64,000 nucleotides of DNA from Thermodesulfobacteriota bacterium (lineage in GTDB: Bacteria; Desulfobacterota_D; UBA1144; Nemesobacterales; UBA2774). Under the pieces are notes generated by a model. The model was not told the origin of the DNA and made no database searches. It saw only the letters and a program-made list of their open reading frames with translations. Of this stretch, positions 20,748-40,385 are shown piece by piece; position 1 is the first letter of the stretch, and each line of letters starts with the position of its first letter. The stretch is from positions 2,976,001 through 3,040,000 of the forward strand of contig OZ244197.1 in the NCBI GenBank assembly GCA_965216785.1, given 5' to 3'. A program made the translations under genes and the position numbers.

Positions 20748-21095
20748 CTACATGCTTAGTTGAAAATACTTTCCTTGAAGCTGCACTATGAAACCGTTAA
20801 GCTCAAGCGACAGAAGAGTGGAAAGCACGTTTGAGGGCTCCATTTCCGTGAGCTTTATTATTTCATCCACATGTAAAGCCTCTGCTTTAAATACGGAAAA
20901 AACCGTCTTTTCATTTTTAGTCAGGGAGTCCACAACGGACTGCCTGTCAAAAGTAATATCAGTACTTTCGCCCAGGGCTATACCTAAATCAATTATCACA
21001 TCCTCTGCTTTTTCTACAAGCTTGGCGCCCTTTTTAATGAGCCAGTTTGGTCCGACACTAAGTTTCTTACCCGCTTCTCCCGGAACTGCGAATAC
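20748..21095 (-). pseudogene. dprA: DNA processing protein DprA, 3' fragment
   Basis: VFAVPG...SVGPNWLIKKGAKLVE plus winged-helix tail LLSLELNGFI...G.YF; continues the 5' fragment in frame. Confidence 0.93.
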
Positions 21096-21107
21096 CTCTA
21101 TGTTGTG
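21090..21107. repeat. Left att-like direct repeat
   Basis: GAATACCTCTATGTTGTG; 14/18 identical to 39615-39632. Confidence 0.8.
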
Positions 21108-21205
21108 TCCTGGTTTAAGGTGCTGAGATTGTTGAGTATTAAGTGTGTTGTATCTCTTAATTGAATAATTAAAAAGGTGTAGTTTACTTCTATAGATCAA
21201 GAGAT

Positions 21206-22228
21206 CTAAGTCAAAGGATCTTCCGATATTTTTACTATGAGCTTCCCCTTATTCGTCCCTTCGAAAAGCTTATTGAGCGCAGCGGGTGCATTTTCAAGTC
21301 CTTCCACAATATCAATACGGTACTTGAGCTTACCTTCCGAGTACCACCTGACGAGATTGTTGATTCCTTCTCCATACCGCTCAGCATAGTTAAGAACTAT
21401 AAACCCTTCCACTCGAGCGCTCTTATAGAGTATGTTGATGAAATTGTAGGGGCCCGGCACAGGCTCAGAAGAATTATACTGTGATATCATCCCACATATG
21501 ACGATTCTGGCTTTAAAATTTATCTGGGCCAAAACGGCATCCAGTATTTTTCCTCCGACGGCATCAAAATAAATATCAATACCTTCTGGACAATGCTCTC
21601 TCAAACTGTCCTGGACCGATTCTGTCTTGTAATTGATTGAGGCATCAAAACCAAGATCGTCCCTAATCCATCTGCATTTTTCTTCTGTGCCAGCTATACC
21701 TACAACACGGCATCCCTTAATCTTGCCAATCTGTCCAGCTACAGATCCCACAGCCCCAGCCGCTGCCGATACCACTAGAGTCTCACCTTCTTTAGGCTTC
21801 CCTATATCTTCAAGGCCGAAATAAGCCGCAAGTCCCGTGTGGCTGAATAGTCCGAAAAATGCGCTCAATGGCACTGCCCCATCATAGGGTATCACACTTA
21901 CATTAGTGCCGTCCGAAATTACATACTCCTCCCACCCCAGAATGCCCTGCACAATATCTCCTTCTTTAAAAGCAGGATTACGGGACTCCTCGACAACACC
22001 GATAATCAGGCCGCGCATAACCTCTCCGGTCTCGACAGGAGGCATGTAAGATTTCCTGGCATCAGCCCACAGTCTGTTAGTTGGATCTAAAGAAAGGTAT
22101 ATGTTGCGGATAAGAATCTCTCCTTCGCATAGTTCAGGTATTTTTTCTTCTTGTAACGTAAAATGCGAAAGATCTAGTCTCCCTACCGGATGTTCAACCA
22201 GAAGCCACCTACGGTTAATTTGACTCAT
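21206..22228 (-). CDS. NADP-dependent alkenal/enone reductase (CurA / prostaglandin reductase-like MDR family)
   Basis: YLSLDPT.R, VVSAAAGAVGS..GQI.KIKG, GIDIYFD.VGG, CGMISQYN, G.NKGKL motifs. Confidence 0.92.
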   Translation of the reverse strand: MSQINRRWLLVEHPVGRLDLSHFTLQEEKIPELCEGEILIRNIYLSLDPTNRLWADARKSYMPPVETGEVMRGLIIGVVEESRNPAFKEGDIVQGILGWEEYVISDGTNVSVIPYDGAVPLSAFFGLFSHTGLAAYFGLEDIGKPKEGETLVVSAAAGAVGSVAGQIGKIKGCRVVGIAGTEEKCRWIRDDLGFDASINYKTESVQDSLREHCPEGIDIYFDAVGGKILDAVLAQINFKARIVICGMISQYNSSEPVPGPYNFINILYKSARVEGFIVLNYAERYGEGINNLVRWYSEGKLKYRIDIVEGLENAPAALNKLFEGTNKGKLIVKISEDPLT

Positions 22229-22281
22229 ATTTAAAAACCTCCCTAAAAATGTAATAGGCTTATTTTCCTCTTACCCTGCTA

Positions 22282-22758
22282 TCAGCTCAACGCATACCAG
22301 GAATAGCTGACTCTGAAACGGTCTCCCTCTGGCTCAACGCTTCCCCTACCAACCGCCTGAATGCGGGTAAGCCATTGGTACTTCTCATTTGCGGTTTCAA
22401 ATCTAGGAGTTGTAAAGAGGTTCAGGTTCGGCGGTAGCTCTCCTGCAAGGAATTTATTGGCTTCGTCTTCCGACATGTCTATTACGCCCTTATACGTTAC
22501 ATATATTAAAGCGTTATCATTAGTTTCTAAAACAAGCCTTACATTAAGTTCAAAGCAGTTATCGAAGCGTATTAGTGCCGCGTCCTCGCCAAGAGGGCGG
22601 ATTTTCGCCTGTAGTTTAGGGCCGTCCACATATCCGTCTTCGCCGATTACGGGAAAAAACAGTCTTGTTCCCCAGCTACTTGACCCTATAGGAGCAGGCG
22701 CCGATACAAACGCCACAACATCGCATATATGGTCTAATTTTATTTCGTATTTAGACAT
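22282..22758 (-). CDS. DUF3237 (UPF0311) family beta-barrel protein
   Basis: G.R..FPV..G.V.GP.L, LNVRLVLETND.ALIYVTY.G, TPRFET..EKYQWL motifs. Confidence 0.85.
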   Translation of the reverse strand: MSKYEIKLDHICDVVAFVSAPAPIGSSSWGTRLFFPVIGEDGYVDGPKLQAKIRPLGEDAALIRFDNCFELNVRLVLETNDNALIYVTYKGVIDMSEDEANKFLAGELPPNLNLFTTPRFETANEKYQWLTRIQAVGRGSVEPEGDRFRVSYSWYALS

Positions 22759-22872
22759 AACTCACCTCTTCGTTTTCGTATATTTTTCAAGCAATACATC
22801 TATTATTTCTTATGGTTATGACACGGGAGAACCGTGATTGATTCCCCCGCGCTGTTTTTATCTTGTGGGTAA

Positions 22873-23151
22873 TTATCTGAAGTCTTCGCTGTGAATCTCA
22901 GCCATCGGGCTCACTTCAGAAAACGGTAGCTCAGGAATCGTATTTGTTAAAGCATCCCTAACTGACTGTGCGTCCCTACCGTCCCATTCGCAGTAAATAG
23001 CGTCAACCTGCCCTTTATCGTTTAATTTCAGCCAACTCTTTACCCAGTACGCATCTGTGCTGAGTCCAGATTTAGCTTTTTTCGCTACGGGCCCCACGTC
23101 CTCAGTATTTACCGGTGGGTCCACCGGATGTATCGCAATAAATTTTGGCAT
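22873..23151 (-). CDS. Small DUF4242/SCO4226-like protein
   Basis: MPKFIAIH...WVKSW.......IYCEWDG.DA.SVR pattern; clear GGAGG RBS. Confidence 0.6.
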   Translation of the reverse strand: MPKFIAIHPVDPPVNTEDVGPVAKKAKSGLSTDAYWVKSWLKLNDKGQVDAIYCEWDGRDAQSVRDALTNTIPELPFSEVSPMAEIHSEDFR

Positions 23152-23239
23152 TTTCTTAGCCTCCTACTATTGAATTTTATTTTTCCTGCAATATAACTCG
23201 GAGAAACTACGCTCTCCTTCTACGATTTTCATCAAATCA

Positions 23240-23719
23240 TTACGGCAGCTTCCACTCGCCGTCCCAGATAGAATAGCCTTGCGGTGTGCCGCCAATTCCT
23301 ACCTGCGCATAAAATGAATTGTTCCCGCTGATCCCTTTGTATTTCCCTGTTCCGCCTGTCCACTGAAAATCCCCTTTGCAGAGCTCAGCGCCTGTACATT
23401 TCCATACTGCAAAAGCCTTATCTCCGTCATTATCCGTGACTATACAGTACCCATGTCCATCGTGCATTCCTTTGTTAATGTCCATAGCTCCAGGACAAAC
23501 AACAGAGCTCTTATCCATAAAGCCGTTGCCCTTATCGTTGAAATTCGTCCCGCCGAACTCCCCGACGAAAAATACATGCTCAGGTCCAACTTCTACCATC
23601 TGTCCTTTTGAATACCAGCCAAATTTACTCGTGAATTTGCCTTCTTTCTCAAACGCAAAAACACTTGAAAAACTAGCCAGCATAAATAAGGACAAGGAAA
23701 AAAATATAAGCTTTCTCAT
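23240..23719 (-). CDS. Secreted hypothetical protein, possible allene-oxide-cyclase/dirigent-like barrel
   Basis: Signal peptide from MRKLIFF (GGAGG RBS); GYC..TD.DGD and GGTGKYKGISG motifs. Confidence 0.6.
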   Translation of the reverse strand: MRKLIFFSLSLFMLASFSSVFAFEKEGKFTSKFGWYSKGQMVEVGPEHVFFVGEFGGTNFNDKGNGFMDKSSVVCPGAMDINKGMHDGHGYCIVTDNDGDKAFAVWKCTGAELCKGDFQWTGGTGKYKGISGNNSFYAQVGIGGTPQGYSIWDGEWKLP

Positions 23720-23769
23720 TTTACTACCTCCTACTATTTTCGATTTAACGAATAACACTTAATTTCCTA

Positions 23770-24159
23770 CTACTCCGCAACTAACCTAAGCGCGCCTACA
23801 CCACGCTCGCTTGATACCTGACAGCTTACGTCTATGGGATAGCTAGTCCCGCTAAAATTACAGACGCTCCTCGGTTTAGAATCCAGCGTTACACCCCAGC
23901 TAGAATCAGCTACTCCCCTAACAACCGTTATATCGGAAACAGCATCATTTTCAGCATTACAACTGAGTGTAAAGCTCTTGCCACCGATAACTCCCTTCGC
24001 ACTTCCTTCAACCCGTCTGCAATAATCCGCATAACAGGTGACATTAGGCATACATGTCAACTTAATACGGACGTCCTTCTGTGATTGGGCGAAAGCACTG
24101 CTTAAGCCCAACGCACTAAGCAAAATCCCTAAAGCTACTAATGTCATCTTGTACTTCAT
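23770..24159 (-). CDS. Small secreted hypothetical protein (6 Cys)
   Basis: Signal peptide ending SAFA; first gene behind the sigma54 promoter. Confidence 0.7.
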   Translation of the reverse strand: MKYKMTLVALGILLSALGLSSAFAQSQKDVRIKLTCMPNVTCYADYCRRVEGSAKGVIGGKSFTLSCNAENDAVSDITVVRGVADSSWGVTLDSKPRSVCNFSGTSYPIDVSCQVSSERGVGALRLVAE

Positions 24160-24266
24160 AACGCACCCCCAGAATTTTTATTAAAGTGCATTTGAAAGCA
24201 CTTTTAATCTATTTCCAGACTTTACTTATCGTTCTTTCCGAAAAATAGATCTCATTTACATGCAAT

Positions 24267-24283
24267 CGCAAGCGGCATGCCAA
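24267..24283 (-). promoter_or_regulatory. Sigma54 -24/-12 promoter for the leftward operon
   Basis: Minus strand TTGGCAT-GCCGC-TTGCG matches TGGCAY-N5-TTGC; about 110 nt upstream of 24159. Confidence 0.8.
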
Positions 24284-24334
24284 CGACGTAACATTCTGTT
24301 ATCATTGCATATTAGTCTCGAGAGCAAACATTAA

Positions 24335-24465
24335 TGTAAACTATCTATACACATGTTTCCCTTTGTGAAAGCGTCTTAGATGGTATATATATTTGAATTT
24401 GTTATAGATGTGTTAAGCTTTGTTTATGTGTCTATATTTCTTTCTTTATGTCTATATAGTTGACA
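24335..24465. promoter_or_regulatory. Two TGT-N11-ACA enhancer (UAS) candidates
   Basis: TGTAAACTATCTATACA (24335-24351) and TGTCTATATAGTTGACA (24449-24465); 14/17 identical when one is inverted. Confidence 0.6.
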
Positions 24466-24493
24466 CCGAAAAAGGTTAAGGCGGGGAGATAGT

Positions 24494-26011
24494 ATGAGTA
24501 AATTAGACGCAATAATGAATATCTGTCAAAAGATCAATACTCAAAGGGAACTGCCGGCACTTTTAGAACTCGTAGTCCAGGAGACAAAAGAGCTTCTTGA
24601 AGCCGACAGATCCAGTATCTTTCTTTTGGATAGAGAAAAACATGAGTTATGGTCAATAATTACCCTTGATGGTGAGCAGATTCGTTTGGATTCACGTCTT
24701 GGAATTACAGGGGACGCTACTATTACAGGACAATCTATTAATGTAGAAGACGTCTCTCAGGATTCCAGATTTTATAAAAAGGTTGATGAAATTGCAGGGT
24801 ATCAAACTAGGAGTCTCTTGGTTGTACCGATTAAAAACCATAACGGGGTGGTCGTTGGCACGTTTCAAGTACTAAACAAAAAAAAAGGTAGTTTCAGTGA
24901 GCAAGATCAAGAGATTTTGGAACTGATAGCCGGCCATGTGGCGGCGGCAATAGAAACCACACAGCTGATCGAAGATTCAAAACAATATCAGCAAAAACTT
25001 CTTAAAGAAAACAACCATCTCTGGAAAGAGGTCGAAGGACGTTTCTTCACGCAAAACATACTAGGAACAAGTCCCCGCATTCAACACATTGTAAGATTAA
25101 TTGAACAAATCAGTGATACCTCTCTTAACGTACTCATAACAGGGGAAAGCGGAACCGGGAAAGAGCTCGTAGCCAAGTCCATACACTATAACAGTCCGCG
25201 CACAAGGATGCCGTTTGTCGCTATTAACTGTGCCGCTCTGCCTGAAAGTCTTTTAGAGAGCGAGCTGTTCGGAATAGAGAAGGGGGTAGCTACAGGAGTG
25301 GAAAGGAGAATCGGTAAATTCGAAGAGGCCAGCGGAGGAACACTTTTTTTAGACGAGATCGGAGACCTGAGCCTTACAGCTCAAGCCAAGATCCTCCGCG
25401 TATTGCAAGAAAGCAGTATTGAGCACGTAGGGGGCAGGAAAACTATACCAATAGACGTTAGAATTATTTCTGCTACAAACAAGGATCTTGAGAGAGAAAT
25501 CAAAAAGGGAAATTTCCGTGAAGATCTTTTCTACCGCCTTAAGGTAATTCATATTCATATGCCGCCTCTAAGGCAGATTGCAGAGGACATTGTACTTATT
25601 GCCAGCTACTTCATGGATAAATACTGTAAGGCAATGAAAAAAGAATCCAAGAAATTCTCACCCGAGACCTTAAGGTGCCTAACCAAGTATGATTGGCCGG
25701 GGAATATAAGGGAACTGGAAAATGAGGTAAAAAGACTGGCTGTTCTCACACCGGGCAAATTAGTACAAGAAGAGAACCTCTCTCCGCACATCAGACCCCT
25801 AATGGACAATATTGAACCCGACTCAACCAAGCCTCTCTCGCTTAAGGAAAATGTGCAGCAATTAGAAAAGCGGTTGATTTTCGAGACACTTGAGAAGTGC
25901 GGCCATAATCAAAAGCGGGCGGCCAAGGTATTGGGATTAAGCCGCCAGGGCTTAATTAATAAAATGAAGAGATATGAAATAACTGCTAATAAAATTAACT
26001 CGTTCAGCTAG
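24494..26011 (+). CDS. Sigma54-dependent activator, GAF-AAA+-Fis HTH
   Basis: PDE-like GAF (ADRSSIFLLD, DSRF..VD...GYQTRSLLVVPI, LNKK..F...D). AAA+ motifs GESGTGKE, ESELFGIEKGVATGV, GTLFLDEIG, FREDLFYRL, WPGNIREL. C-terminal HTH. Confidence 0.93.
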   Translation: MSKLDAIMNICQKINTQRELPALLELVVQETKELLEADRSSIFLLDREKHELWSIITLDGEQIRLDSRLGITGDATITGQSINVEDVSQDSRFYKKVDEIAGYQTRSLLVVPIKNHNGVVVGTFQVLNKKKGSFSEQDQEILELIAGHVAAAIETTQLIEDSKQYQQKLLKENNHLWKEVEGRFFTQNILGTSPRIQHIVRLIEQISDTSLNVLITGESGTGKELVAKSIHYNSPRTRMPFVAINCAALPESLLESELFGIEKGVATGVERRIGKFEEASGGTLFLDEIGDLSLTAQAKILRVLQESSIEHVGGRKTIPIDVRIISATNKDLEREIKKGNFREDLFYRLKVIHIHMPPLRQIAEDIVLIASYFMDKYCKAMKKESKKFSPETLRCLTKYDWPGNIRELENEVKRLAVLTPGKLVQEENLSPHIRPLMDNIEPDSTKPLSLKENVQQLEKRLIFETLEKCGHNQKRAAKVLGLSRQGLINKMKRYEITANKINSFS

Positions 26012-29000
26012 AAGTTTGAAGCTCGTCAAGCAACCCTCTGGCATCTCTTAAGTCTTTTGTCTCAAATCCTTCCTCAAACCAGCCGTAAGTCTTTGCAAGC
26101 ATCTCCCGGGCTTTTTCAGTTTTTCCTCTATTCCGTAGGCTGCTGCATAAGCTGGTAGTAGCACGAAGCTCTAATGATCTTGCTCCCAAGCTTTCCGCAA
26201 TCACGACTGCCTTTTGAAAGTAGGATTCTGACTCTTTATAATTGTCAGAAGAAATGCCGTTTGTCAGCTCCCCCTTAATTCTATGAAGCTCGGTTTCCAT
26301 CCAACGCTCACCAGAATTTTGTACAAACGCCAATGCCCCCTCTATAACCTCTAATCCCTCTTTGAATTTTCTAGCTCCAAGATATCTATCTGCTAATAAT
26401 CCCAAGAAATATGATTTTCCTGATGCTGATCCAATTGTTTCCATGTCATTCAATCCTTTGAGGATCTGCTTAATTCCGCTCTCTTTCTCATCTGTCTCGA
26501 CTTTAGACCAGCCTCTCATAATGTTTCCGAATGCTAACCAGAATGGAAACGCTTGGTCGGAGGAAAGGGAAATCAATTGCTCAGAAAGCTCTGAAGTATT
26601 ATGGCAATCGCCACAGAGCTGATAGATCACAGCCGAAAAGAATAGAGCCCAAGCCAGACTGAAAGGATGAGATAGATCACGTGCTAACGCCCGGGCTTCT
26701 TGGACTGTTATTAAACTCTTATCGGGTTTACCCAGTTGCCAAAGAGCCATCGCCTTATAAGACAAGCAAGCCACACCGGGGTCCGTCCATAACCAGGGAT
26801 AACGGGGTACTAGGGTATCGTATAGGGAATAGCCCTGTTCCATATGCTCATAACAATAATTAAACCTGCCCTGCGAATAAAACGTCTCTCCCAAAGCTAT
26901 GTGGGCCACTGTAATCAGACCCGGGTCTTTTAAGACTCGTGCCAGTCGCATCAGCCTCTCAGCCAGCTCTAGCGCCTCATCGTATTCTGCTCTTAGATAA
27001 TAAAAGACATGGAGACCCATCAATGCCGGGAAATATTGCGGAAATTCACCAAGTTCACTACACAGTTCCCTTGCCCTACTATATGTTCTCTCAACTTCTT
27101 TAGAAGAATAACCCATAATAGCTATAAGCGGTGAGCCAAGGGTAATGAGTATCTCAAGCTCTTTATTGCGGTTATCAGGAGTATCCGGCAGACTTTTGAC
27201 TAATTCAAGTGCTTTTTCTAAATGTCTTATTGCCTCAATATTAGCACTATGGCCTATCGCCTTTTGACCTGCTGTAAACCAATAAGAAATCGATTTTTCA
27301 AAGAGGTTTGCCTGTGTAAAATGATGTCCCAATAGCTCAGGATGATTCTCGCACTTTTCAGGGAAACTCTCTTCCAATACACGGGCAATTTTTTGATGAT
27401 ACTGCTGTCTTTTTCTTTTTGAGAGTGATTGATATGCGGTGTCTTGAACAAGTGCATGTTTGAAAATGTATGTACTATCGGGGAAATCTCCACTCTTATA
27501 GAGGAGTTCTGCCCCTTCTAGAAGCTCAAGCTGTTTCTCCAAAGCGGGTTTGTCTAATTCCGAAACAGCCTCTATCATTTCATATGTAAACGAGCGCCCT
27601 ATCACAGCTCCCAATTGTGCTAGTTCTTTCGCCATAGCAAGGCGGTCAAGTCTGGACATTAAAGAGCCGTAAAGTGTGGACGGTACTTGATCTAACGGAA
27701 GTGGTATAAAGCCCTCAGAATCGTCTGTTCTTTCTTTAATTGTGCCCGTTTCGAGGATCATTTTTGTCAACTCTTCGACGAAAAAGGGTATTCCATCTGT
27801 TTTGTTTACTATCGCGTTTGCCAATTTATCAGGAAGAACTTTGCCTCTCGTAAGATAATGGACCATTTCTTCTACTTCATATCTGTTCAAACGGTTAAGT
27901 GTGATTGATGATAAATTGGAGCTGCTAACCCAAGGCGGGATGAATTGCGGTCTAAAAGTCAGAAGAGCAAGAATTTCGGAATTTTGAGCATTCTCTACTA
28001 GGAAACTTAAAAATTCCAATGTCGAGGGATCTGACCAATGTAAATCCTCTACTATAAATAATAACGGTTGCTTTGCAGCTTCTTTAATGAGCAAGCTATT
28101 TAATGCTTCTATTGTCTCCTGTTTTTGTCTTTGAGGGCTCAAACTCAGAGGTTCATAACCATTGGGTAACGGAAGAGAAAGAAGCTCCGTAAACAGTGGG
28201 AGAGTTTCTTTAAGAGGTAAATCGTATGATTCTAAGCATTCTTCAAGTTTCTTCAGTTTTCTCTGAGCGGTATCGTCTTTACGGTAGCCCAATAAGTTCT
28301 GGAGAAAAGAACTGATAGGATTAAATGGAGTATTTTGGTCATAAGGTGAACATCGAGATTCAAATTTGTTGCATAGCTCAGGTATCAATCGTTCTTTTAG
28401 CACATCTACAAGTCTGGACTTTCCTATGCCGGCTTCACCACTGAGTAAAATCACATGTCCTACTCCATTCTTAACACCTTCCCAATGCTCTAGGAGTAAT
28501 TTAACCTCATCCTCTCTCCCCACAAGTGGTGTTAACCCTTTGACGGCTGCTATATCCAGTGGACTCTCCACATCACTTCGGCGGAGTACAGAATATAATT
28601 CCATTGGCTTTGAGTAGCCTCTGAGATTATATGAACCTAAAGATTGACAGACAAAATATCCTTCTATCAGTTTATAAGTTGCCTCGCTTACTATTATGCA
28701 GTTAGGTTCGGCAATATCCTTTAACCTTGCAGCGATATTTGGTGTTACTCCCATGGCCAGGGATTCATGTTTTTCCTCTTTTTCCATTCCCCCAACAACT
28801 ACTAATCCCGTGTGAATCCCTATTCGAACATTAAGTTGCTGCTTCCTATCGAATTTTGAATTATGACGTTTTATCCCCTGGAGTATTCCCAAACCCGCAT
28901 GCATTGCACGCTTAGCGTCATCCTCGTGGGCAATCGGATAACCAAAATAAGCTAATACTCCATCGCCTAGATACTGTGCGATATAACCGTCAAAACTTCT

Positions 29001-29159: not shown

Positions 29160-29444
29160 TGTCTAACCTCTTTACTCCGATCAAAAATATTAGCCGCATA
29201 AATACATTAACCTTTCAGACTATTTAAGACCCTATCTTATAATAATATAAAAATCATCAACATATAATTTGATACTTTCCGACTAGAATACGGAGTTCTA
29301 AGATTTTAATTTAGATTTTCAACAGAGAACCATATATAAATAAGGTTAGTAGTAAGGCCAGCACGCCTTGTACTCATTTTGATCTGACGTAATCTTATAC
29401 TTTTGAATTTCATCGCACCGTGTATTTTATATTTAGGTGTCTAA

Positions 29445-29496
29445 TGTCCTAGATATCGACACTCTCGCCCCCAATGTTATGTCATCAGGTTAGATA
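29445..29496. promoter_or_regulatory. Two TGTC-N9-GA[CT]A enhancer candidates
   Basis: TGTCCTAGATATCGACA (29445-29461) and TGTCATCAGGTTAGATA (29480-29496), upstream of the sigma54 promoter. Confidence 0.45.
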
Positions 29497-29527
29497 ATTT
29501 TTGATTGGTTTGAGTGTATTACCTTGA

Positions 29528-29544
29528 TTGGCATATAGATTGCA
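29528..29544 (+). promoter_or_regulatory. Sigma54 -24/-12 promoter for the IPTL-CTERM gene
   Basis: TTGGCAT-ATAGA-TTGCA, about 100 nt upstream of ATG 29645. Confidence 0.82.
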
Positions 29545-29644
29545 CATAAAAAATATTAGGAAAAGAAGATTAATATAATGTATTGGTATAGTTTGAAGAA
29601 GTATAGTTGAGTTATTTAAAAAAAATTCTTAGGAGGTAGAGGAA

Positions 29645-31158: not shown

Positions 31159-31216
31159 TTGAGGACTTAATCCGGGTGTTCTAATTAACTGCAGTTATTG
31201 AGTATATTGGAACTAT

Positions 31217-31256: not shown

Positions 31257-31326
31257 TGTACTGCTCCCCATTTTGTTAAACTCGATTTAAGCTTATATAT
31301 GTTTTCCTAATGGTAGAATAGAAGGG
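31257..31326. repeat. Repeat copy 2 (shorter), IS150/IS3-end-like unit
   Basis: TGTACTGCTCCCCATTTTGTTAAAC...GCTTATATATGTTTTCCTAATGGTAG..AGAAGGG. Confidence 0.72.
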
Positions 31327-31336: not shown

Positions 31337-32270
31337 ATGAGAACGCTGGTATTTGGTGCAGGCCCACTGGGTTGTCTTTATGCACATATTCTTGGTCAGG
31401 CAGGAAAGGATGTAACGATTCACGCGCGAGGTCAACGGTACGACTTCATTAAGGCCAATGGTCTTGTAAATCACTGGAGCTAAGGGGGGCTCGAAGGTTC
31501 AGGTAGTAGATGAACTGAAGGAGGACGATGAATACGATCTCGTGGTCGTTCTCATAAGAAAGAACAAGCTACCGCCTGTGTTTGAGGTTCTTCGGGCCAA
31601 TGCCAATATCAAGAACATCCTGTTCATGGGCAACAACGCAATTGGCTTTGAGCAGTACCTGCGGCACTTGCCTCAGGAGAAGTTGCTGTTTGGGTTTCCA
31701 GGTGCAGGAGGTGGGATTAGCGAACACACCGTCCATTACGTTGATCGAGAGAAGGCAGGCGAGAAGCGGAAACCCATAACTATCGGAGAAATCAACGGGG
31801 AGACCAAGGAGAGGACGCGGATAGTTAAATCGCTGTTTGAAACGAGCGGAGTTCCCGTTAAAATTGCTGGAGATATCGATGGGTGGTTGAAGTACCATGT
31901 CGCCTTGGTTCTTCCATTGGGGAATGCCCTCTACAAGCACGATTGCAACAACTACGCTCTCGCCAAAGACAAAAAGACGATTCGGACGATGGTACGAGCT
32001 GCAAAGGAAGGCGGCAGAGTCCTGAAAGCTCTGGGATACACAAAGCGCTACCCATTCCGATTCAACCTGTTCTACTGGTTGCCCGAGATACTTAATGTGA
32101 AGGCCGTCCAGGGCCTTCTAGAAAGCAAGTTTGCGGAAGTAGGATTCGCTCTGCATGCTAGGGCGGCACGGGACGAGGTGAGGGTACTCGCAGGTGAATT
32201 CCAGAGTCTGATTGACAAGACGTCTGTAGAAACACCGAACATAGACACTCTGAGGAGCTTTATCGCATGA
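31337..32270 (+). pseudogene. Ketopantoate reductase (ApbA/PanE)-family protein, frameshifted
   Basis: ATG 31337 gives MRTLVFGAGPLGCLYAH...ARGQR (Rossmann motif) and stops at ~31483. The rest (YDLVVV.IRK, LFMGNN, GFPGAGG, WLKYHVA) is in another frame ending at 32270. Confidence 0.85.
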
Positions 32271-32286
32271 AAGAGAAAGGCCGAAC

Positions 32287-32393
32287 TGACCTGCACCCCT
32301 TTTGTTAAACAGGTCTTTGGTGCTTATATGTCTTCTGAATGGTAGTAAAGAAGGGATATAATTTAGTGGTATTGTGAGCATAACGTAAGCGTG
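32287..32393. repeat. Repeat copy 3, IS150/IS3-end-like unit
   Basis: TGACCTGCACCCCTTTTGTTAAAC...TAAAGAAGGGATATAATTTAGTGGTATTGTGAGCATAACGTAAGCGTG. Confidence 0.75.
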
Positions 32394-32467
32394 ATGCACA
32401 CTATTTTAAGTGGCTGTGATTGCCAAAGAGTTCAATCTCATACATCAAGTTAGAATATCTTTCATCA

Positions 32468-32773
32468 CTAGTTGCCATAGTCGTAGATCAGGACGCCATC
32501 TTCAATTTGAGTAGGGAGGATGATCAAGCGGGAATCCGGACGCGCCGGTCCCTTCAGATATTTCCCTTGGTTACAGTCAAATTCTGCGCCATGCCATTGG
32601 CAAACGAGCTTCTCACCAACTTTTTTCATCGGGCCGCCAAGGTGCATACATATATTCACAATTGCTTTGGGCTTACCGTGATGCTTATAGACCAGCACCT
32701 CACGTCCTAAGAAATCTATCGTTATCGTCCCTTCATCGGGTATATCCTCTTGTTTACAAAGCGGTACCTTCAT
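32468..32773 (-). CDS. Small Rieske (2Fe-2S) ferredoxin
   Basis: CMHLGGP...CQWHGAEF (CxH...CxxH); start placed at MKVPLC. Confidence 0.9.
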   Translation of the reverse strand: MKVPLCKQEDIPDEGTITIDFLGREVLVYKHHGKPKAIVNICMHLGGPMKKVGEKLVCQWHGAEFDCNQGKYLKGPARPDSRLIILPTQIEDGVLIYDYGN

Positions 32774-32789
32774 GCTAAACCCCCTATTT

Positions 32790-32981
32790 TTATAGTTTGG
32801 CAATACAATTGATTTCTACCATAAGCTCAGGGAAAACAAGACGCTCTATGCAGACAATGTTTCTGATGTCATGGCTCACCTTGCCTGAGATATATATAGT
32901 ATTTTCTACTTTCACCGCCTGGGAGTAGCCGTAATCCTGCTCCCACGGCATTCCCAGGCTCCTTGTTTCTTTATCGATCAT
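32790..32981 (-). pseudogene. RidA/YjgF-family gene with internal deletion
   Basis: N-terminal PWEQDYGYSQAVKV..TIYISG is joined directly to C-terminal L.FPELMVEI.CIA; 63 aa versus ~130 aa typical. Confidence 0.8.
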
Positions 32982-33025
32982 CTTAATGTCTCATAATGTT
33001 CTTTTGTAAATACTTCATATTTTCG

Positions 33026-33976
33026 CTAATCTATAATTAGATCCAGCGCTGTTGCCCAGCAATGTCCTTTAGTATATAAATCCGCCGCTTTTAACTGATG
33101 CCTCCATTTTTCCAATGTGATCTGAGTGCAAACTTCGCTAACCGCTTCCAGGTAAGTATTGAATGGGATATAAGGCTCCTTGGTTGGATTGTCCTTTCCG
33201 GCAAAGGAAATGGGTGGTTGAGTGATTTGCAGAGCCTTACCGGCATTACTTTGAATATCGATGATGTATTGGTGTGCTGTATCGAACTCCTCGCGTGTTC
33301 CCGGTCTGCCTACATGACCGCCTTGGAAATATTTAAAGTCGTATTCCTTTGCTTGGTCGAAGGCTTGGAAATAGCCGGGGATGCTCGCGGCTACAGCAAA
33401 GTCTTCAAACGGTACCCACCCGGGATAGAGGACATCTACTAACATCAACACCTTTTGTTTCGGCAGATAAATAAATACGTTTCCCGGAGAGTGTTGCAGA
33501 CCAGGATAGGATAATTCAACCTGCTGATTGCCGAGTTTAACGGTATGGTTGTCACTGAAAGTCACGGTCGGCAGCGGTCTATTGGGGTCATTCTTCCTGC
33601 GCAGCTCGTTAGCCGTAAGCTCATGAGCCACACGGATTACATCGTTTCCAAATAGCGAAGACCCGGCTGTATGATCAGCGTGATGGTGACTGTAAATAAA
33701 GTATTTAACAGGTTTGTCAGTTACTTCACGGATAGCATCTTGTAATTTGTCTGCATAAGAACGCGGAGCGTCGACTACAATAACGCCTTCGTCACTGACA
33801 ATAAACATCGAGTTGTAGAGACCGTCAGTAACCCAATAAGCACCTCCGCCATAACTTCCAATATGATAACCTTTCGAGTCTATTACCGGGTTCTTGATCG
33901 TTTGATTGGATGCATATGCCGACCACCCTGATAAAACGATTAAGCAACTGGTTAATACTATGTAGAATATTTTCAT
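33026..33976 (-). CDS. Secreted metallo-beta-lactamase-fold hydrolase
   Basis: Signal peptide, VIVVDAP, YSHHHADH (HxHxDH), HSPG, GGHVG. Confidence 0.88.
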   Translation of the reverse strand: MKIFYIVLTSCLIVLSGWSAYASNQTIKNPVIDSKGYHIGSYGGGAYWVTDGLYNSMFIVSDEGVIVVDAPRSYADKLQDAIREVTDKPVKYFIYSHHHADHTAGSSLFGNDVIRVAHELTANELRRKNDPNRPLPTVTFSDNHTVKLGNQQVELSYPGLQHSPGNVFIYLPKQKVLMLVDVLYPGWVPFEDFAVAASIPGYFQAFDQAKEYDFKYFQGGHVGRPGTREEFDTAHQYIIDIQSNAGKALQITQPPISFAGKDNPTKEPYIPFNTYLEAVSEVCTQITLEKWRHQLKAADLYTKGHCWATALDLIID

Positions 33977-34029
33977 ATCTTTATCTCCTTGTTTTACTCA
34001 TATTCATTTACATCCTTTCACAATCAATT

Positions 34030-34353
34030 CTAGGACTCGAGTGGGAATCCCGCCTCGGTCCAATCCTGCTTACCTTCGACGTACTCGTAAACTTTTTCAT
34101 AGCCTAAAGCCTCAAGAGTCCTGGCAGCTTTAGTTGAGTTCTGACACTCGGTACTAGCACAATAAACTACTATTTTTGCTTTCTTATCGGGAAGCAGCGT
34201 ATCTGCCTTCTCTTCTATTTCCGTATAATCGATCTGTATAGATCCGGGCAGATGCGCCTCCCTCCAGTACTTTTCGGGTAGGGCTTCTACTAAAGTTAAG
34301 CCATGCCCGTTATCTAATGCATTCTTCAATTCGTGTCTCGTAATGTTCTTCAT
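34030..34353 (-). CDS. Rhodanese-like domain protein
   Basis: HLPGSI, IVVYCASTEC, Y..GK.DW..AG.P motifs. Confidence 0.9.
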   Translation of the reverse strand: MKNITRHELKNALDNGHGLTLVEALPEKYWREAHLPGSIQIDYTEIEEKADTLLPDKKAKIVVYCASTECQNSTKAARTLEALGYEKVYEYVEGKQDWTEAGFPLES

Positions 34354-34379
34354 TTCAAGACCCCCTTATTTGTTTATTA

Positions 34380-34395
34380 TGTTGCAGCTGCAACA
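34380..34395. promoter_or_regulatory. MarR operator candidate 1
   Basis: Perfect palindrome TGTTGCAGCTGCAACA, 27 nt upstream of the rhodanese start. Confidence 0.75.
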
Positions 34396-34537
34396 AATAT
34401 AAACTTATAGATTATTGTTGACGTAAAAAGGATTCAAGATTTATACGTGAGCATAATTACGGCTTTAAAATATTCAGATTTGGGATTAAATAAGATGATT
34501 AAATACGATACAAAAAACCGGAAATAATTTGTTTTGG

Positions 34538-34987
34538 TTATCCTTCGAGAGTTTTTCTAATTCTCCTTATATGTTGTATAAAGTCGTCCAGCTCTTTTTT
34601 ATTAAAGTTAGACAGGAAGTATTCTTTTAGAACATCGTAGTACACAGGCCACATTTTCCTTCTTACGTCACGGCCTTTTTTAGTTATTACAGCAACTACG
34701 CCCCTTGCATCTTCTTCGCAATCCTCTCTTACGACCAGACCTGCCTTTTCAAGCCGTTTAATCGTTCTTGTGACATTATATCTGGTTAGTAAAACTCGAT
34801 TGCCTAATTCAACAAACCTCAATCTCCCGTCATCACTCTTGTCGAGCTCTAATAATACGTCATACCAGGAATAGGGAGGCAAATCTTTATTTTTCAGCTC
34901 AGCTTCAACTTTTGCTAATAGCTTTTCAGATGATAGTACAAGTCCAACCCATGCTTCTGTTTCCTTGCCACTAAGTTTTTTAGTCAT
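34538..34987 (-). CDS. MarR-family transcriptional regulator
   Basis: WYDVLLEL, VTR.I.RLEKAGLV.R..C.EDARG...IT..G; start placed at MTKKL (ORF track extends to 35005). Confidence 0.92.
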   Translation of the reverse strand: MTKKLSGKETEAWVGLVLSSEKLLAKVEAELKNKDLPPYSWYDVLLELDKSDDGRLRFVELGNRVLLTRYNVTRTIKRLEKAGLVVREDCEEDARGVVAVITKKGRDVRRKMWPVYYDVLKEYFLSNFNKKELDDFIQHIRRIRKTLEG

Positions 34988-35008
34988 AGTGGAAATTTTA
35001 TACAAATA

Positions 35009-35024
35009 TGTTGCACACGCAACA
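35009..35024. promoter_or_regulatory. MarR operator candidate 2
   Basis: TGTTGCACACGCAACA directly upstream of the MarR gene; same TGTTGC-N4-GCAACA pattern as 34380. Confidence 0.75.
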
Positions 35025-35162
35025 ATTTTGTTTTATAAATATAAATACTAATGTGATTGTGATTACCTCAAGGTACATGAAAGATCACATAATTATATTT
35101 ATCTACGTGAGCTAGTCCTAGTATAAAAACATAGCATTGTTATAAAATGATCAATACTTGTA

Positions 35163-36041
35163 TCATTGGGAAAAAGCCGTTTCTAGCCAAGATAGAAAAA
35201 TTCGTACTTTTTCTTCCTTTCGTTTTTCAGGTATGCAAAGAGCTGTATAGGATGCACCGTCAAGCTTCACGTCTGCGCGATATGGAGTTAATAAATTACG
35301 GCTAACCAAGTCGTCGACAAGGACAGAACTTGCCAGTGCTATTCCCTGACCAGCCATTGCAGCTTGTAATACATGCTCTTCTTCAGCAAATCTTAATAAC
35401 TTAGGATCATCAATCTTTATGGCTGCTGCTCCAAGCCATCTGTCCCAATTTACATCAGACATAACTTCTTGCTGCCAAGCCGTTTCAATGAGTTGCAAGT
35501 CTTTTAGTCCTTCATCAAGCGGAAGCAAATAAGGTGAGACATATGCACCAAAAGTTTCAGTGATCAATGTTGTAGCATCCAAATCCTCATATGGTCCATG
35601 GCCATAACGTATCGCAATATCTACTCTTCTATCTTGTTTAAGGTCGATTGGCTTAGTTGTGGTATCCAGCTGTACACTATAGTTTGGATTTGATGCGTAT
35701 AGCTCTGCCAGCTTTGGTACCAGCCGTAATGTGGCAAACGATGCGGTAGTAGAGACATTGATAACAGTCTCAAGCGAAACTATGTGTTCCAATCCGTTAC
35801 GAATGTCTAAAAATGCGCGTGTTAGGATAGGCGCTAGCTCCTTACCAGCGGTAGTGAGCTCGATTGATCGCACCTTTCTGACGAATAATGAAATATTTAG
35901 CTGGGATTCAAGTGTACGTATTTGATGTGATACCGCAGCCGGTGTAACAAATAATTCCTTTGCTGCCGCTTTAAAACTTCCTAGTCTGGCAGCAGATTCG
36001 AATGTCCTTAGGATAAATGGTGACGGTATGCGGCTAAACAT
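35163..36041 (-). CDS. LysR-family regulator (GcvA-like)
   Basis: LR.FESAARLGSFKAAA.EL.VTPAAVSHQIR.LE and DIAIRYG motifs. Confidence 0.93.
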   Translation of the reverse strand: MFSRIPSPFILRTFESAARLGSFKAAAKELFVTPAAVSHQIRTLESQLNISLFVRKVRSIELTTAGKELAPILTRAFLDIRNGLEHIVSLETVINVSTTASFATLRLVPKLAELYASNPNYSVQLDTTTKPIDLKQDRRVDIAIRYGHGPYEDLDATTLITETFGAYVSPYLLPLDEGLKDLQLIETAWQQEVMSDVNWDRWLGAAAIKIDDPKLLRFAEEEHVLQAAMAGQGIALASSVLVDDLVSRNLLTPYRADVKLDGASYTALCIPEKRKEEKVRIFLSWLETAFSQ

Positions 36042-36051
36042 AATTATCTCC

Positions 36052-36076
36052 TATAGATTAGTTATACTAATCTATA
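36052..36076. promoter_or_regulatory. Inverted repeat between the divergent LysR and RidA genes (LysR box candidate)
   Basis: TATAGATTAGT-TAT-ACTAATCTATA, perfect 11-bp arms. Confidence 0.65.
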
Positions 36077-36180
36077 ATCAAATTATTCTCCTTTGTCAAT
36101 TGAATTATACAAAAGTATAATACATCTATAATGATGCTTACAGAGAGATATCTGAAAGACTTTTACAAAGGAGAAATAGA

Positions 36181-36594
36181 ATGAAAATTGAAGGTATATC
36201 CACTCAACCTGACCCCTACGCACCATACCTGCTGTCGCAAGCTATAAAAGCAGGTCCGTTCGTGTTCGTCTCCGGACAAGCTGGTTATGATAGCAATTCA
36301 AAAATCGTGGAAGGTGGTTTCACTGCTCAAGGTGAGCAAGCATTCAAGAATTTAAATCGGGCTCTAGTGGCTTCTGGAAGCTCATTAGAAAACGTTTTGA
36401 AGGTCACGATATTCGTAACGGATATGAGCCACTTCAAAGATGTGGTCGATCTACGAAGAAAATATTTTTCAGAGCCCTATCCTGCGGACACAATAGTTGA
36501 GGTTAAAGCACTCTATTCCCAGGAAGTAATGATAGAAATAGAGGCCGTCGCGCTAATAAGCAGGAAAGATGAAAGTACCCCAGATTCTATATAG
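36181..36594 (+). CDS. RidA/YjgF/UK114-family protein
   Basis: SQAI.AG.FVFVSGQ, VLKVTIFVTDM, YPA.T.V.V..L...IEIEAVA. Confidence 0.9.
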   Translation: MKIEGISTQPDPYAPYLLSQAIKAGPFVFVSGQAGYDSNSKIVEGGFTAQGEQAFKNLNRALVASGSSLENVLKVTIFVTDMSHFKDVVDLRRKYFSEPYPADTIVEVKALYSQEVMIEIEAVALISRKDESTPDSI

Positions 36595-36631
36595 GGACAA
36601 GTATATGAAACTCAGGCTTATGGGGGTTTAA

Positions 36632-37768
36632 ATGAGGCATACGGTTAGTAGTAACGAGCACGAATACCTTAAATTATTCACTATCGCACAGATAATTAAT
36701 TATCTGAAAACCCATGATGAATTCGAAAATTTTAAGGATCTCTTACTCAGAGATAATACACCGCTCAAAGAAGAGATAGTACCGGAAAATAATTTTGAGG
36801 GAATCGTTGGTGCGAGCAAATTATTAAAAAAAGCTCTTAGTAAAGTTAATATGGTGGCGGATACGGATGCGACAGTTCTAATAAGGGGCGAAACGGGTAC
36901 AGGGAAGGAGCTCATAGCGCGCGCAATTCATAACAATAGCCCCAGGAGGGACCGGCCGTTGGTCAAGGTAAACTGTCCCGCCATACCCCAAGGACTCTTG
37001 GAGAGCGAGATGTTCGGGCATGAAAAGGGGGCGTTCACCGGTGCGCTCGCAAAGAAAATCGGCAAGTTTGAGCTTGCTGATGGTGGAACTATATTTCTGG
37101 ACGAGATGGGAGACCTGTCGCTTGATGCTCAGGCAAAGCTCCTCAGGGTGCTGCAGGAAATGGAGTTTGAGCGCGTGGGCGGTACAGAGACGATCAAAGT
37201 GGACGTGCGCGTAATTGCTGCTACAAACAGGGATTTGGAAGCTCAGGCGAAAGAGGAGAAATTTCGGAGAGACCTCTATTACCGTTTAAATGTGTTTCCC
37301 ATAGCTATTCCCCCCCTTTCGGAGCGTAGAGAAGATATACCTCTCCTTGCAATGTATTTCACACAGAAGTACGTGAATAGGTTGGGTAAAAACATAATGT
37401 CAATCAGCGATGACACCCTAAATAGGTTAAAGAGTTATTCATGGCCGGGAAATATCAGGGAGCTTGAAAACATAGTCGAAAGGGCAGTGATTCTCACGAC
37501 TGGCAAAGAGCTTGAGATAGGAAGGGAGCATTTCGGTACTTCTTCTGAAGCGGCAACCTCAAAGGAGGGCTCCCATGTAAAATTGGAAGATATAGAACGC
37601 AATCATATAATAAGTATATTGAATAAAACAAATTGGCAGATCCATGGGGAAAAGGGAGCTGCTAAAATACTAGGTATCAATGCCAATACGCTCAGGAGCC
37701 GTATGGCAAAGCTTGGTATAAAAAAGGTACTAAAAGTATCTGACCAAAAGCTCAAGTTTCCTTTATAA
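36632..37768 (+). CDS. Sigma54-dependent activator (FhlA/HyfR-like AAA+ and HTH) lacking an N-terminal sensor
   Basis: GETGTGKE, ESEMFGHEKGAFTGA, FLDEMG, WPGNIREL, GAAKILGIN..TLRSRM.KLGI; only ~55 aa precede the AAA+ domain. Confidence 0.9.
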   Translation: MRHTVSSNEHEYLKLFTIAQIINYLKTHDEFENFKDLLLRDNTPLKEEIVPENNFEGIVGASKLLKKALSKVNMVADTDATVLIRGETGTGKELIARAIHNNSPRRDRPLVKVNCPAIPQGLLESEMFGHEKGAFTGALAKKIGKFELADGGTIFLDEMGDLSLDAQAKLLRVLQEMEFERVGGTETIKVDVRVIAATNRDLEAQAKEEKFRRDLYYRLNVFPIAIPPLSERREDIPLLAMYFTQKYVNRLGKNIMSISDDTLNRLKSYSWPGNIRELENIVERAVILTTGKELEIGREHFGTSSEAATSKEGSHVKLEDIERNHIISILNKTNWQIHGEKGAAKILGINANTLRSRMAKLGIKKVLKVSDQKLKFPL

Positions 37769-38702
37769 ATTTATCTATTAGTTTTCCGATCTGCTCAGGC
37801 GCATCCTCATGGCAGTAGTGCCCAACTCCTTCGAGACGATGAATATGGCTGTTCGGAAAAGCTTCATTAAAGAGTGGAAGGAAGTACTTTGGCTGAAGGG
37901 TTTGGTCTGCCATACCCCAGATAGCCAAGGCAGGCTTGCGAGAAAGCTCTCTTATGGTAGGTGGATCACCCACCTCGAATCTGTGCGCACCCTCCGCAAA
38001 TCCCTTCGCCCAGCCGATTGCGCCCAGGCAATACTCCGGTACCCTGAACGGATCGCGATAAGCGCGTAACCAGGTATCTGTGATCACCTCATTGCGCTCG
38101 AATCCGTTTAGCTTCAGAGTGCTGAGAATGTTGTAATCGAGCTGCCCGAGAATCTGCTCTAAAGTACCGTCCTCATAAGCTTTTGCGATCCAGCTAAACC
38201 ATGGGGAGCTAGCCCCGTTTTTTTCAAGAGCGTCAACGAGACCCGGCTGACCAAGCGGTGTGGGTCCGTTGGTGCTGATGATCCGTTTAATGCGATCCGG
38301 GTGACGAATGGCTAAACCAATACCTGTCGGTCCGCCAAAGTCATGCATGACGAGCGTGATATCTCTTAAGTTGAGGTCTAGGACGAACCGCTCCAGGTTG
38401 TCGATGTGGTCCTGAAGTAGATAGCTCCTATCCTGGGGCGTATCGCTTTTTCCGAAGCCCATATGGTCGGGTGTGATCACTCTATATCGCGGCGAAAGGT
38501 CATTGATGAGTTTCCTAAACAGGTATCCCCATGTCGGCTCACCGTGAAGAGCAAGAACAGTTTCACCATTACCCTCCTCCACGTAGTGCATCTGAAAGCC
38601 CGGCGCACTGGTGTAGCGGGCTTCGAAAGGCCACGTGCCGTCGAAGGTCTCCTCGGATGGTACAGACATTCTCTCAAGCAGTTTGTTTCTCATTTTTACC
38701 AT
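37752..38702 (-). CDS. Alpha/beta hydrolase, haloalkane dehalogenase-like
   Basis: MHYVEEG, LHGEPTWGYLFR, PDHMGFGKSD, nucleophile HDFGG, GHYCHED. Confidence 0.85.
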   Translation of the reverse strand: MVKMRNKLLERMSVPSEETFDGTWPFEARYTSAPGFQMHYVEEGNGETVLALHGEPTWGYLFRKLINDLSPRYRVITPDHMGFGKSDTPQDRSYLLQDHIDNLERFVLDLNLRDITLVMHDFGGPTGIGLAIRHPDRIKRIISTNGPTPLGQPGLVDALEKNGASSPWFSWIAKAYEDGTLEQILGQLDYNILSTLKLNGFERNEVITDTWLRAYRDPFRVPEYCLGAIGWAKGFAEGAHRFEVGDPPTIRELSRKPALAIWGMADQTLQPKYFLPLFNEAFPNSHIHRLEGVGHYCHEDAPEQIGKLIDKFIKET

Positions 38703-38853
38703 CTATCTATATTCAAACACCTGTTAATGCTTTAGTTAACCAGAATATGAAAAAGATTCCGGCTATAGATTTAAAATTAAATTTATACGGTGAACGGGAA
38801 TATCTAGTCCAGAATTGTTATTAAAATGGTCTGCATTCTATTAGATTAATAAA

Positions 38854-39267
38854 CTAAGCTTCTGGAACATTGTGGTCAAGCGCGCGTGATATTTGAGCCG
38901 TGTCCGCATACTGACGCATCCGCGTCAGTTTACCGTGTGAAACGTCCCATAAATGAGCAAAAGCTGAGGGCATATCCTCCCCCGTTAACTTAGATGGCGT
39001 GTGATAAGTACCAATCGATATTACCAAATTATTACCCGCATCTATATACTCATGTATTTCGAGCGTAAAGGGGTCAAGAAGTGCCCAGACTTTTGAGAAA
39101 AAATCGTTAATTGCGGAATCCAATCCCGAATATGTACCACCATAAGGCCAACCTTTCATCATTACAAGCTCGATGTTTTGATCTAAAACAGTTGGCAGTT
39201 GACTCGGCACACCACTCATTAAGATTTCATAAAATTTCTTTACTGTTTCTATGTTGTCGGAAGACAT
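38854..39267 (-). CDS. SnoaL/NTF2-like protein
   Basis: N.ETVKKFYE, PYGGTY.G, FAHLW.V..GKL..M.QYADT. Confidence 0.85.
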   Translation of the reverse strand: MSSDNIETVKKFYEILMSGVPSQLPTVLDQNIELVMMKGWPYGGTYSGLDSAINDFFSKVWALLDPFTLEIHEYIDAGNNLVISIGTYHTPSKLTGEDMPSAFAHLWDVSHGKLTRMRQYADTAQISRALDHNVPEA

Positions 39268-39578
39268 GTTGTATCCCTCCTAATACTTACCCATATCACA
39301 ACATTAAAATTTGATCAAGATTTTTTGTCTGTCTCAAATAAGACTTCCTAGAGAAATCAATATGGTAGGCTTTGAATACTGACTTTACTTAATTTCGATT
39401 GACTGTAGTACGGCACATTTTTTAATTAGCTCAACTTTGACCAATATATACTTTCCGAATCATAGAAAAGAACGGCTACAAAATTCCTTTATTTTGATTA
39501 CAATGTCAGTATGATGTGCTCTATTTTAAGTTGCTTTGATTTTTGACAATTTACTTCTTGTATCTAAGTTTAATTCTA

Positions 39579-40385
39579 CTAATGAAGGGGTAGCTTTTTC
39601 TTGTATTGTTTCTTGAATACGTCTTTATTCTGATCGAGCGCAAATGAAGCAGTGATAAGAGAGCCGCTTTTTTGAGAAGCTTGAACTACTATTACGCCTA
39701 ACGAAAGGCCGCTTATTACCCTGTTTCTCTGAGGGAAATTTTGTCCCAGCGGACCCGTCCCAAGAGGAAATTCCGATATCACCGCGCCGTTTTGGGATAT
39801 CTTATCGTAAAGCTTATCATTCTCAGGCGGATATATTACATCAATGCCGGAGCCGAGCACTGCGATCGTTCTTCCCCCGCGCTCAATCGCTTCCTCTTGA
39901 GCTATCGAGTCTATACCGCGCGCCATGCCGCTAACTATTGTAATCCCCCTTGCGGCAAGCTCCCCCGAAAGTTTCTGGGTCACAGTTCTCCCGTAACGGT
40001 CAGGAATTCTCGAACCAACAATCGCTACCGAAAGGGAATCTTCGGGCAATATCTCACCTTTCACATAAAGGATTAGAGGGGGATTGTAAATATTAAACAG
40101 GCTCTCTGGGTAGGCGGGTTCATTCAGCGTGAGTACATTGAGCCCGAGCTTTTCAATAGCTTTTATCTCCTCTTCAACAAGGATCCAATCGGAGAAGGCA
40201 CAGATAGACTCTATGATATTCTCAGAGCCCCTTTCGAATATCCTTTTTATTCGTCCAAGCTCGCTCCTGCTTGCTTTAAACAGCTTCTCCGGACTCTCGA
40301 ACTCATCCAGAAGCTTTTTAGCAGACACATACCCTACGCCTTCCACCATGCTTAGAGCTATCCAGTACTTTAAGTTCTTATTCAT
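39579..40385 (-). pseudogene. dprA: DNA processing protein DprA, 5' fragment
   Basis: YP..L..I.NPP.ILYVKG, AIVGSR, VSGMARGIDS.A, TIAVLGSG.D..YP, FPQRNR.ISG, SGSLITA..ALDQNKDVF. Homology stops at 39615 and is followed by 11 unrelated codons. Confidence 0.95.
39615..39632. repeat. Right att-like direct repeat
   Basis: GAATACGTCTTTATTCTG; 14/18 identical to 21090-21107. Confidence 0.8.

Follow-up and report, generated by a model that had tools for sequence, protein, structure and literature searches.

A dprA gene split by an integrase-free island whose ends probably derive from one serine-integrase attachment site

In the 64,000-nucleotide stretch of Thermodesulfobacteriota bacterium DNA analyzed here (the window; positions 2,976,001 to 3,040,000 of contig OZ244197.1), which is part of one 3.12-Mb contig, the competence gene dprA is cut in two by an island of about 18.5 kb. 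How did an island that carries no recognizable integrase enter this gene, and can it leave again? We put the probability at about 0.8 that the island is an integrase-free composite element, the ends of which are halves of one attachment (att) site, that it was inserted in dprA by a large serine recombinase (LSR) from outside, and that it likely leaves the strain without a working DprA. An earlier sequence-only reading of the window had described the split and proposed that dprA is an integration target, with transformation either blocked or reversibly switched.

The split dprA gene and its empty allele

The two parts of the gene, and the crossover at each junction, are as follows; P and P' are the arms of the att site described in the next section.

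39622..40385, - strand: dprA 5' part, codons 1-254 plus GA of codon 255; Pfam DNA_processg_A profile positions 2-184 of 212
20748..21098, - strand: dprA 3' part, EVFAVPG through the stop; Pfam DprA_WH (winged helix)
39622..39623, + strand: crossover TC at the 5'-gene junction, an attL-type hybrid in which a TC-class P arm is joined to dprA; placed by read joint and site-family register
21097..21098, + strand: crossover TC at the 3'-gene junction, an attR-type hybrid in which dprA is joined to a short P' arm; placed by read joint and site-family register

The split is real. Three of four sequencing runs hold the whole stretch inside one contig with zero differences; these three are from one sample of one study, possibly the source of the assembly, and all run comparisons rest on assembled contigs, in which rare forms are hidden. 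Two runs of another study contain a near-identical strain with an empty site, whose contigs join 21096 directly to 39622 and omit 18,525 bases. Neither half has an internal stop, as had been noted earlier, and a genome-wide search (3.12 Mb) matches each half to itself alone, leaving a single dprA. A same-genus genome has an intact gene, with the two flanks adjacent to one another; the halves share 89% and 87% identity with it, and their identities co-vary across 30 relatives (Spearman 0.74). In the other same-genus genome a contig break lies just upstream of dprA, the site itself being intact; DprA matches above the cut-off occur in 37 of 41 genomes searched, nearly all of them full-length. 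Misassembly, or the derivation of the halves from two different dprA genes, had been named by the sequence-only reading as what would undo its claim; given the spanning contigs, the single dprA, the same relatives for both halves and the precise empty allele, either has next to no probability.

The empty allele also locates the exchange. Three letters of its joint fit either side; the read joint retains C21096 and loses G39621, which places the exchange within TCT (21097-99/39622-24) and assigns the G at 39621 to the element, not to dprA. The crossover dinucleotide common to both junctions is TC, as expected of an LSR-integrated element, in which attP and attB share a central dinucleotide. When the island is cut out in silico at this crossover, a frame of 370 aa with one terminal stop results, reading ...ALDQNKEVFAVPG. 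The length and frame predicted earlier for the rejoined gene thus held, but the residue did not: since 21096 is joined to 39622, the empty allele encodes Glu (GAG; NKEVF) where Asp (NKDVF) had been read. Among relatives, 26 of 28 genomes have Glu as the target residue and two have Asp (30 rows less two repeats of a genome). The search pattern itself demanded Asp or Glu, so a statement that all dprA sites contain TC would be circular; 4 of the 30 loci compared failed to match the pattern.

The hexamer GAATAC, previously taken as the core of the exchange, does occur at both junctions (21090 and 39615), but 21 copies lie on the + strand of the window, and both the read joint and the register of the site family rule it out; it is a look-alike sequence beside the crossover. 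Of the two junction types that had been proposed for searching, the empty-site joint occurs in two runs of another study and a circle-type joint in one low-depth contig; the proposed probes were each wrong by one base because the exchange lies within TCT and not at GAATAC.

A site family and its probable recombinase

Repeats inside the island belong to a family of sites of about 105 bp, of which the genome holds 22 copies by a first pass and 24 by a refined model, clustered in several islands. (G000 is this genome, other G labels are relatives, L labels are loci and P labels are LSR proteins.) Of 101 genomes searched in the order, 16 contain such sites, and 14 of these 16 belong to the strain's own taxonomic family. 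By central dinucleotide, 41 distinct whole sites comprise 35 AG, 5 TC and 1 AA; the island ends are of the TC class, whole sites of which occur in G024, G097, G009 and metagenome contigs. Sites of the AG and TC classes are found together, often side by side, in G000 (twice), G009, G097, L135, L137 and L138. On a scoring matrix built from 19 whole copies, with the island ends left out, the end at the 3'-gene junction scores 27.8 bits, the sole non-listed match above 18 bits among 6.2 million positions, and the left end, at the 5'-gene junction, scores 20.5 bits on the opposite arm. Because the two ends match opposite arms, they rejoin into one whole site in exact register.

39551..39621, - strand: TC-class P arm, encoding a detached integrase tail, TYSRNNTRKSYPFISRIKLRYKK-stop, like the LSR gene tail in L137; CAAGA at 19-23 from the crossover
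21099..21145, + strand: short P' arm, 27.8 bits on the matrix built without the island ends
39450..39554, + strand: whole internal site, AG class; crossover 39508-09, 114 bases from the terminal TC crossover
32330..32434, + strand: whole internal site, AG class; crossover 32388-89
31095..31199, + strand: whole internal site, AG class; crossover 31153-54
31267..31326, + strand: partial copy, outer P arm alone

The recombinase is indicated by other genomes. AG-class halves are joined to comM at codons GGHNL|LMIG in G003, G022 and the metagenome locus L135, and in G003 both ends of a comM island of about 25 kb are halves of the site family. This island encodes an LSR of 527 aa with Resolvase, Recombinase and zinc-ribbon domains, which ends exactly at the crossover; 14 relatives of it were found, and the 12 listed end at the same motif or slightly past it. 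Protein P0016 continues with ...NTSYLRYVHNTTHF, the translation of the AG-class P arms. In L137 the LSR gene, though frameshifted, reads through a whole TC site, its tail matching the peptide of the P arm of the dprA island. The P-arm coding frame is interrupted by stops in 5 of 41 sites, the other frames in 9 and 32. The comM junctions beside an LSR gene, together with the tail peptides in the P arms, suggest that the family likely represents the attachment sites of an LSR family of about 527 aa that is absent from this genome: here the family profile finds just two unrelated LSRs. Across 120 genomes of the phylum, the same profile gives matches with E <1e-60 in three; a search of genome contigs for further loci returned the query alone, viral contigs gave none, plasmids gave distant matches only, and a search of representative sequences yielded proteins lacking their gene neighborhoods.

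Motif placement is consistent with this assignment. In the attB sites of serine integrases the zinc-ribbon motif stands 5 bp nearer the crossover than it does in attP (PMC3783163). Read outward from the crossover, CCACT is found at 19-23 in AG-class P arms and in the G003 gene end, and CCGCT at 14-18 in comM; in the TC class the arms carry CAAGA or CCAGA at 19-23, against CCgGG at 14-18 in dprA. The 19-23 versus 14-18 placement corresponds to the serine-integrase shift, clearly for the AG class and comM, more weakly for the TC class and dprA (three of five letters).

The short P' arm equals the G003 gene end minus 15 bases, and those 15 hold the zinc-ribbon motif. Short P' arms are noncoding (stops in 32 of 41 sites), and all proteins of the LSR family, judged by eye, carry the long form. 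The uniformity of the deletion suggests that one defective ancestor spread, rather than that the gene was lost many times separately. Within each arm, the distances between the 35 AG sites are correlated (0.25, p 0.016; 0.28, p 0.004), and three of the four cross-arm pairs are uncorrelated (-0.03 to -0.06), so the arms appear to have been exchanged at the crossover.

Several other candidates for the repeats or their enzyme were considered. An RNA gene received no Rfam match at the gathering score in 20000-41000; dif-like Xer sites, for which no canonical dif was found in the genome by pattern, were displaced by the LSR evidence. The resident 563-aa LSR of a comM island (see below) was rejected as helper: it uses another comM codon, is 26% identical to the cognate family, and no such arm lies upstream of its close relatives in the loci compared.

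Arrays of five and six co-oriented family sites occur at genome C1 1609-1615 kb and 2685-2693 kb (L081, L082), some of them in tandem 128 bases apart, with tyrosine integrase genes nearby and the family LSR absent. G052 by itself has six members of the LSR family (L160-L166), whole or broken, and these end at different non-comM sequences, suggestive of relaxed targeting. A second, unrelated LSR of 612 aa lies at genome C1 1150514-1152352 (L046) between two similar genes of about 200-220 aa.

Origin of the island and loss of transformation

In the proposed course of events, an autonomous element would carry an LSR gene that spans its own attP, and integration would leave the last ~25-30 codons of that gene as a P arm at the far end. 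A defective derivative may have lost the LSR gene except for an end of about 45 bp with a 15-nt internal deletion, the short P'. With a helper LSR present, integrase-free modules, each consisting of cargo between a P arm and a short P' arm, could stack in tandem by accretion, which would leave whole P'-P sites between them, and a three-module composite circle would have used its TC-class site against dprA codon 255. Lacking an LSR, the island would be unable to excise and would be fixed until a helper element arrives. The three whole internal sites, with arms largely uncorrelated across the crossover, have the form of the chimeric internal att sites left by accretion.

Several points weigh against this account. 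A serine integrase does not ordinarily pair attP with attL or attR (PMC3783163), so accretion would need a leak; the missing zinc-ribbon motif may be what permits such pairings. The outer-left/inner-right cross-arm pair does correlate (0.21, p 0.044). No TC-class LSR gene was found beside a dprA half, the sole TC-class gene (L137) being frameshifted on a 2.2-kb contig; no module is seen excised in the contigs of the source-like runs; dprA matches the TC motif in three of five letters; and of the 58 genomes that gave a 3'-half match (120 searched), just one has dprA interrupted at this codon, six other odd dprA cases in that survey being frameshifts, contig ends or whole genes.

This rarity bears on whether dprA is a dedicated target. 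The same enzyme and sites might have struck dprA as a chance secondary site, with the main target of the TC class elsewhere; we regard this as possible though doubtful. Besides the single case in 58 genomes, it would agree with the use of other secondary sites by the family, for instance upstream of an ABC substrate-binding gene in G000 and G001, and with a TC-class arm at genome position 864,717, in non-dprA DNA. It is opposed by the position of the crossover, at bases one and two of a codon conserved as Glu or Asp, by the L137 attP, which is identical to the dprA site of a relative (G004) over 15 central bases, by the enrichment of DprA among LSR targets (DNA_processg_A in 9 clusters versus 0 in the background, false discovery rate 0.032; PMC10083194), and by the dprA site ranking 7th of 6.2 million for the TC core +/-8 bases, although it ranks 78 and 495 with wider cores. 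Motif rank was discarded as proof of a dedicated target, since the true comM target ranks 238-27,133 on the AG matrix. In this group comM is hit far more often than dprA. The ABC site (genome C1 ~1502831; L196 ~6675 in G001) is joined to different P-arm types in the two species, which suggests independent insertions.

A tyrosine recombinase acting in trans on the repeats, either one of the 208-213-aa catalytic-only enzymes encoded here or the host Xer, is a very unlikely alternative to the LSR. G000 has 15 tyrosine recombinase matches, and two of the three short ones adjoin repeat copies; however, no repeat was found beside the short enzyme in the loci of G003, G004, G018, G097 and G099, and the idea is further opposed by the 2-3-base shared core, by comM junctions lying next to an LSR gene and by the LSR tail encoded in the P arm. 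The short enzymes (genome C1 870935-871561, 1163412-1164038 and 1289416-1290057) consist of the catalytic domain only and are 85-88% alike; relatives occur in six other genomes of the family, some inside comM islands.

With insertion of a composite element by an outside LSR retained as the preferred reading, the consequences for DprA can be considered. In the occupied allele the 5' part reads on into the island to a stop at 39579, giving a product of 268 aa that lacks both the winged helix and the last portion of the core domain; a promoter-like site for the 3' remnant was looked for and none was found. DprA function is therefore likely lost in this strain, as predicted from these sequences. 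In other Gram-negative bacteria the DprA winged helix recruits ComM (10.1101/2024.10.21.619469), and comM is itself split in this genome, at PTIL|P (genome C1 861952-862761 and 894948-895667; L045, L047, L048), by an island of about 32 kb with its own 563-aa LSR; the cut codon differs from the GGHNL|LMIG site of the cognate family. The genome retains comEC, a comF-like gene, a comEA-like helix-hairpin-helix gene, pilB and recA.

Excision of the island on a signal to restore DprA, as described for prophages in comK, would make it a reversible switch. Precise excision does give the 370-aa frame, both in silico and in the empty allele, and in run X1 the empty allele (depth 8) is accompanied by a circle-type joint 39614/21090 (depth 3.5, short side of 33 letters) and by small, exactly matching fragments from inside the island. 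That joint is one short contig with two other letters in the arm concerned; it could stem from an excised circle or from a site that is unsplit elsewhere, in another strain or array. In four source-like runs, in which contigs drop rare variants, no excision joint appears, and runs X3 and X4, which gave small low-depth pieces, were set aside as evidence. The island has no recombinase, the genome no cognate LSR, the short P' arm no zinc-ribbon motif, and comM, the recruit of DprA, is broken by a different island. A regulated switch is improbable because the genome lacks the cognate enzyme, and for the same reason the break in dprA likely blocks transformation. The earlier proposal of site-specific integration into dprA stands, and its suggestion of a transformation block fits the otherwise retained competence genes; its switch idea has little support beyond the restored frame, although the one low-depth circle-type contig leaves some chance of excision somewhere in the species. 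The repeat family that accounts for the island ends had gone unnoticed in that reading.

A broader possibility can be offered tentatively. Compact sites that lack the zinc-ribbon motif on one arm might escape the one-way control of serine integrases, and integrase-free modules could then be captured, stacked and reshuffled in an integron-like manner whenever a helper LSR passes; circles with AG and TC sites could land in comM or dprA, with transformation turned off either way.

Other comM islands in the group add detail. The comM site of the 563-aa LSR is also occupied by its close relatives in G004, G018 and G024, and nested in the comM island of this genome is an array of four whole family sites plus one TC arm. 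In L143 (G099), L157 (G001), L191 (G009), L189 (G100) and L192 (G017), comM leads at its 3' end directly into a 20-35-base duplicate of the gene's own GGHNL target, and in four of the five a P arm adjoins this duplicate; placed just after the comM stop, it would restore the gene or act as a decoy. Further comM islands or junctions that lack the cognate LSR are found in L141 (G022; 13510-19640) and L187 (G007; ~2290), the G007 junction having a short arm like that of the dprA island.

Related systems and island contents

In architecture the island is closest to the Dehalococcoides ssrA islands and to accretion of cis-mobilizable elements (CIMEs). The former (with the serine recombinase DsiB; PMC3146451) share tandem islands, conserved att regions of about 85 bp and an LSR 3' end that overlaps the att site, and many of them lack an integration module and have been read as cis-mobilizable. 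In Dehalococcoides the ssrA target is kept whole, with a 20-bp direct repeat, whereas here protein genes for competence are broken and the core is 2 bases; unlike those islands, the present ones have two core classes, internal sites that share one deleted noncoding arm, and arrays in unrelated islands. CIMEs retain attL and attR, have lost integration and transfer genes, and form composites with chimeric internal att sites (PMC5704250, PMC5357655). The dprA island fits this definition by a Pfam scan of 19 island open reading frames (ORFs), with attL and attR present and integration and transfer genes absent. CIMEs, however, are mostly known from streptococcal integrative and conjugative or integrative mobilizable elements (IMEs), and all intact IMEs in accretion had tyrosine integrases (PMC5357655); here modules are as small as one gene, and one uniform family of internal sites recurs from genome to genome.

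Integrons are arrays of short gene modules between related recombination sites. The dprA island resembles them in its module arrays between related sites and their cassette-like accumulation, but it has no IntI, its sites have serine-integrase features and a detached coding tail, and its modules reach 10 kb. Switch elements in comK carry their own integrase; the dprA island, in contrast, has none.

As an LSR target dprA is already known (table of PMC10083194), and in the 2022 supplement of that study comM-like 'magnesium chelatase' genes are the commonest targets. Those elements were found through their own LSR, unlike this island; six 14-base probes had no match in the supplementary table, which lists no site per target. 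The islands agree with other mobile elements of competence genes in the targeted disruption of a transformation gene (PMC12378983), Table 2 of that 2025 review being without dprA. In PMC5341023 dprA is carried as cargo, and 10.1101/2024.08.13.607808 concerns DprA levels, not insertion. A literature search, with most subscription papers outside its reach, listed none that treats dprA as an insertion site for islands or deals with this site family. What is new here is the uniform short-arm site family, its two core classes that often lie side by side, and the arrays inside unrelated islands.

The system offers testable parts, namely an unstudied LSR family, natural attP sites in two core classes and two competence-gene targets, along with a derived defective site that has spread through islands of one bacterial family. 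It bears on the origin and movement of islands without mobility genes, and on whether cassette arrays can arise through serine integrases, whose chemistry runs one way. The predicted loss of both dprA and comM, with uptake genes kept, would be a clear natural case of mobile DNA shutting down transformation.

The island has a GC content of 0.423, versus 0.46 for the genome. No integrase, recombinase or relaxase was found among the 19 ORFs by the Pfam scan, and the cargo falls into three modules.

21206..30965, no strand assigned: cargo module 1; NADP-type oxidoreductase, DUF3237, SCO4226-like, two exported proteins without assigned role, GAF sigma-54 activator, cyclase-AAA-TPR protein, DUF4394-like exported protein, orphan transposase helix-turn-helix gene
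31337..32270, + strand: cargo module 2; single frameshifted gene between two AG sites, 3' part without Pfam match
32468..39267, no strand assigned: cargo module 3; Rieske protein, metallo-beta-lactamase-fold protein, rhodanese, MarR, LysR, RidA-like, sigma-54 activator, alpha/beta hydrolase, SnoaL-like

The module 2 gene, which we take to resemble ketopantoate reductase, has 11 additional bases at 31467 in the contigs of runs X2 and X4, so its break looks recent. The orphan transposase gene of module 1 (30690-30965) is presumably the first gene of an IS3-like element, of which the genome has a two-gene copy at C1 1323576-1324618.

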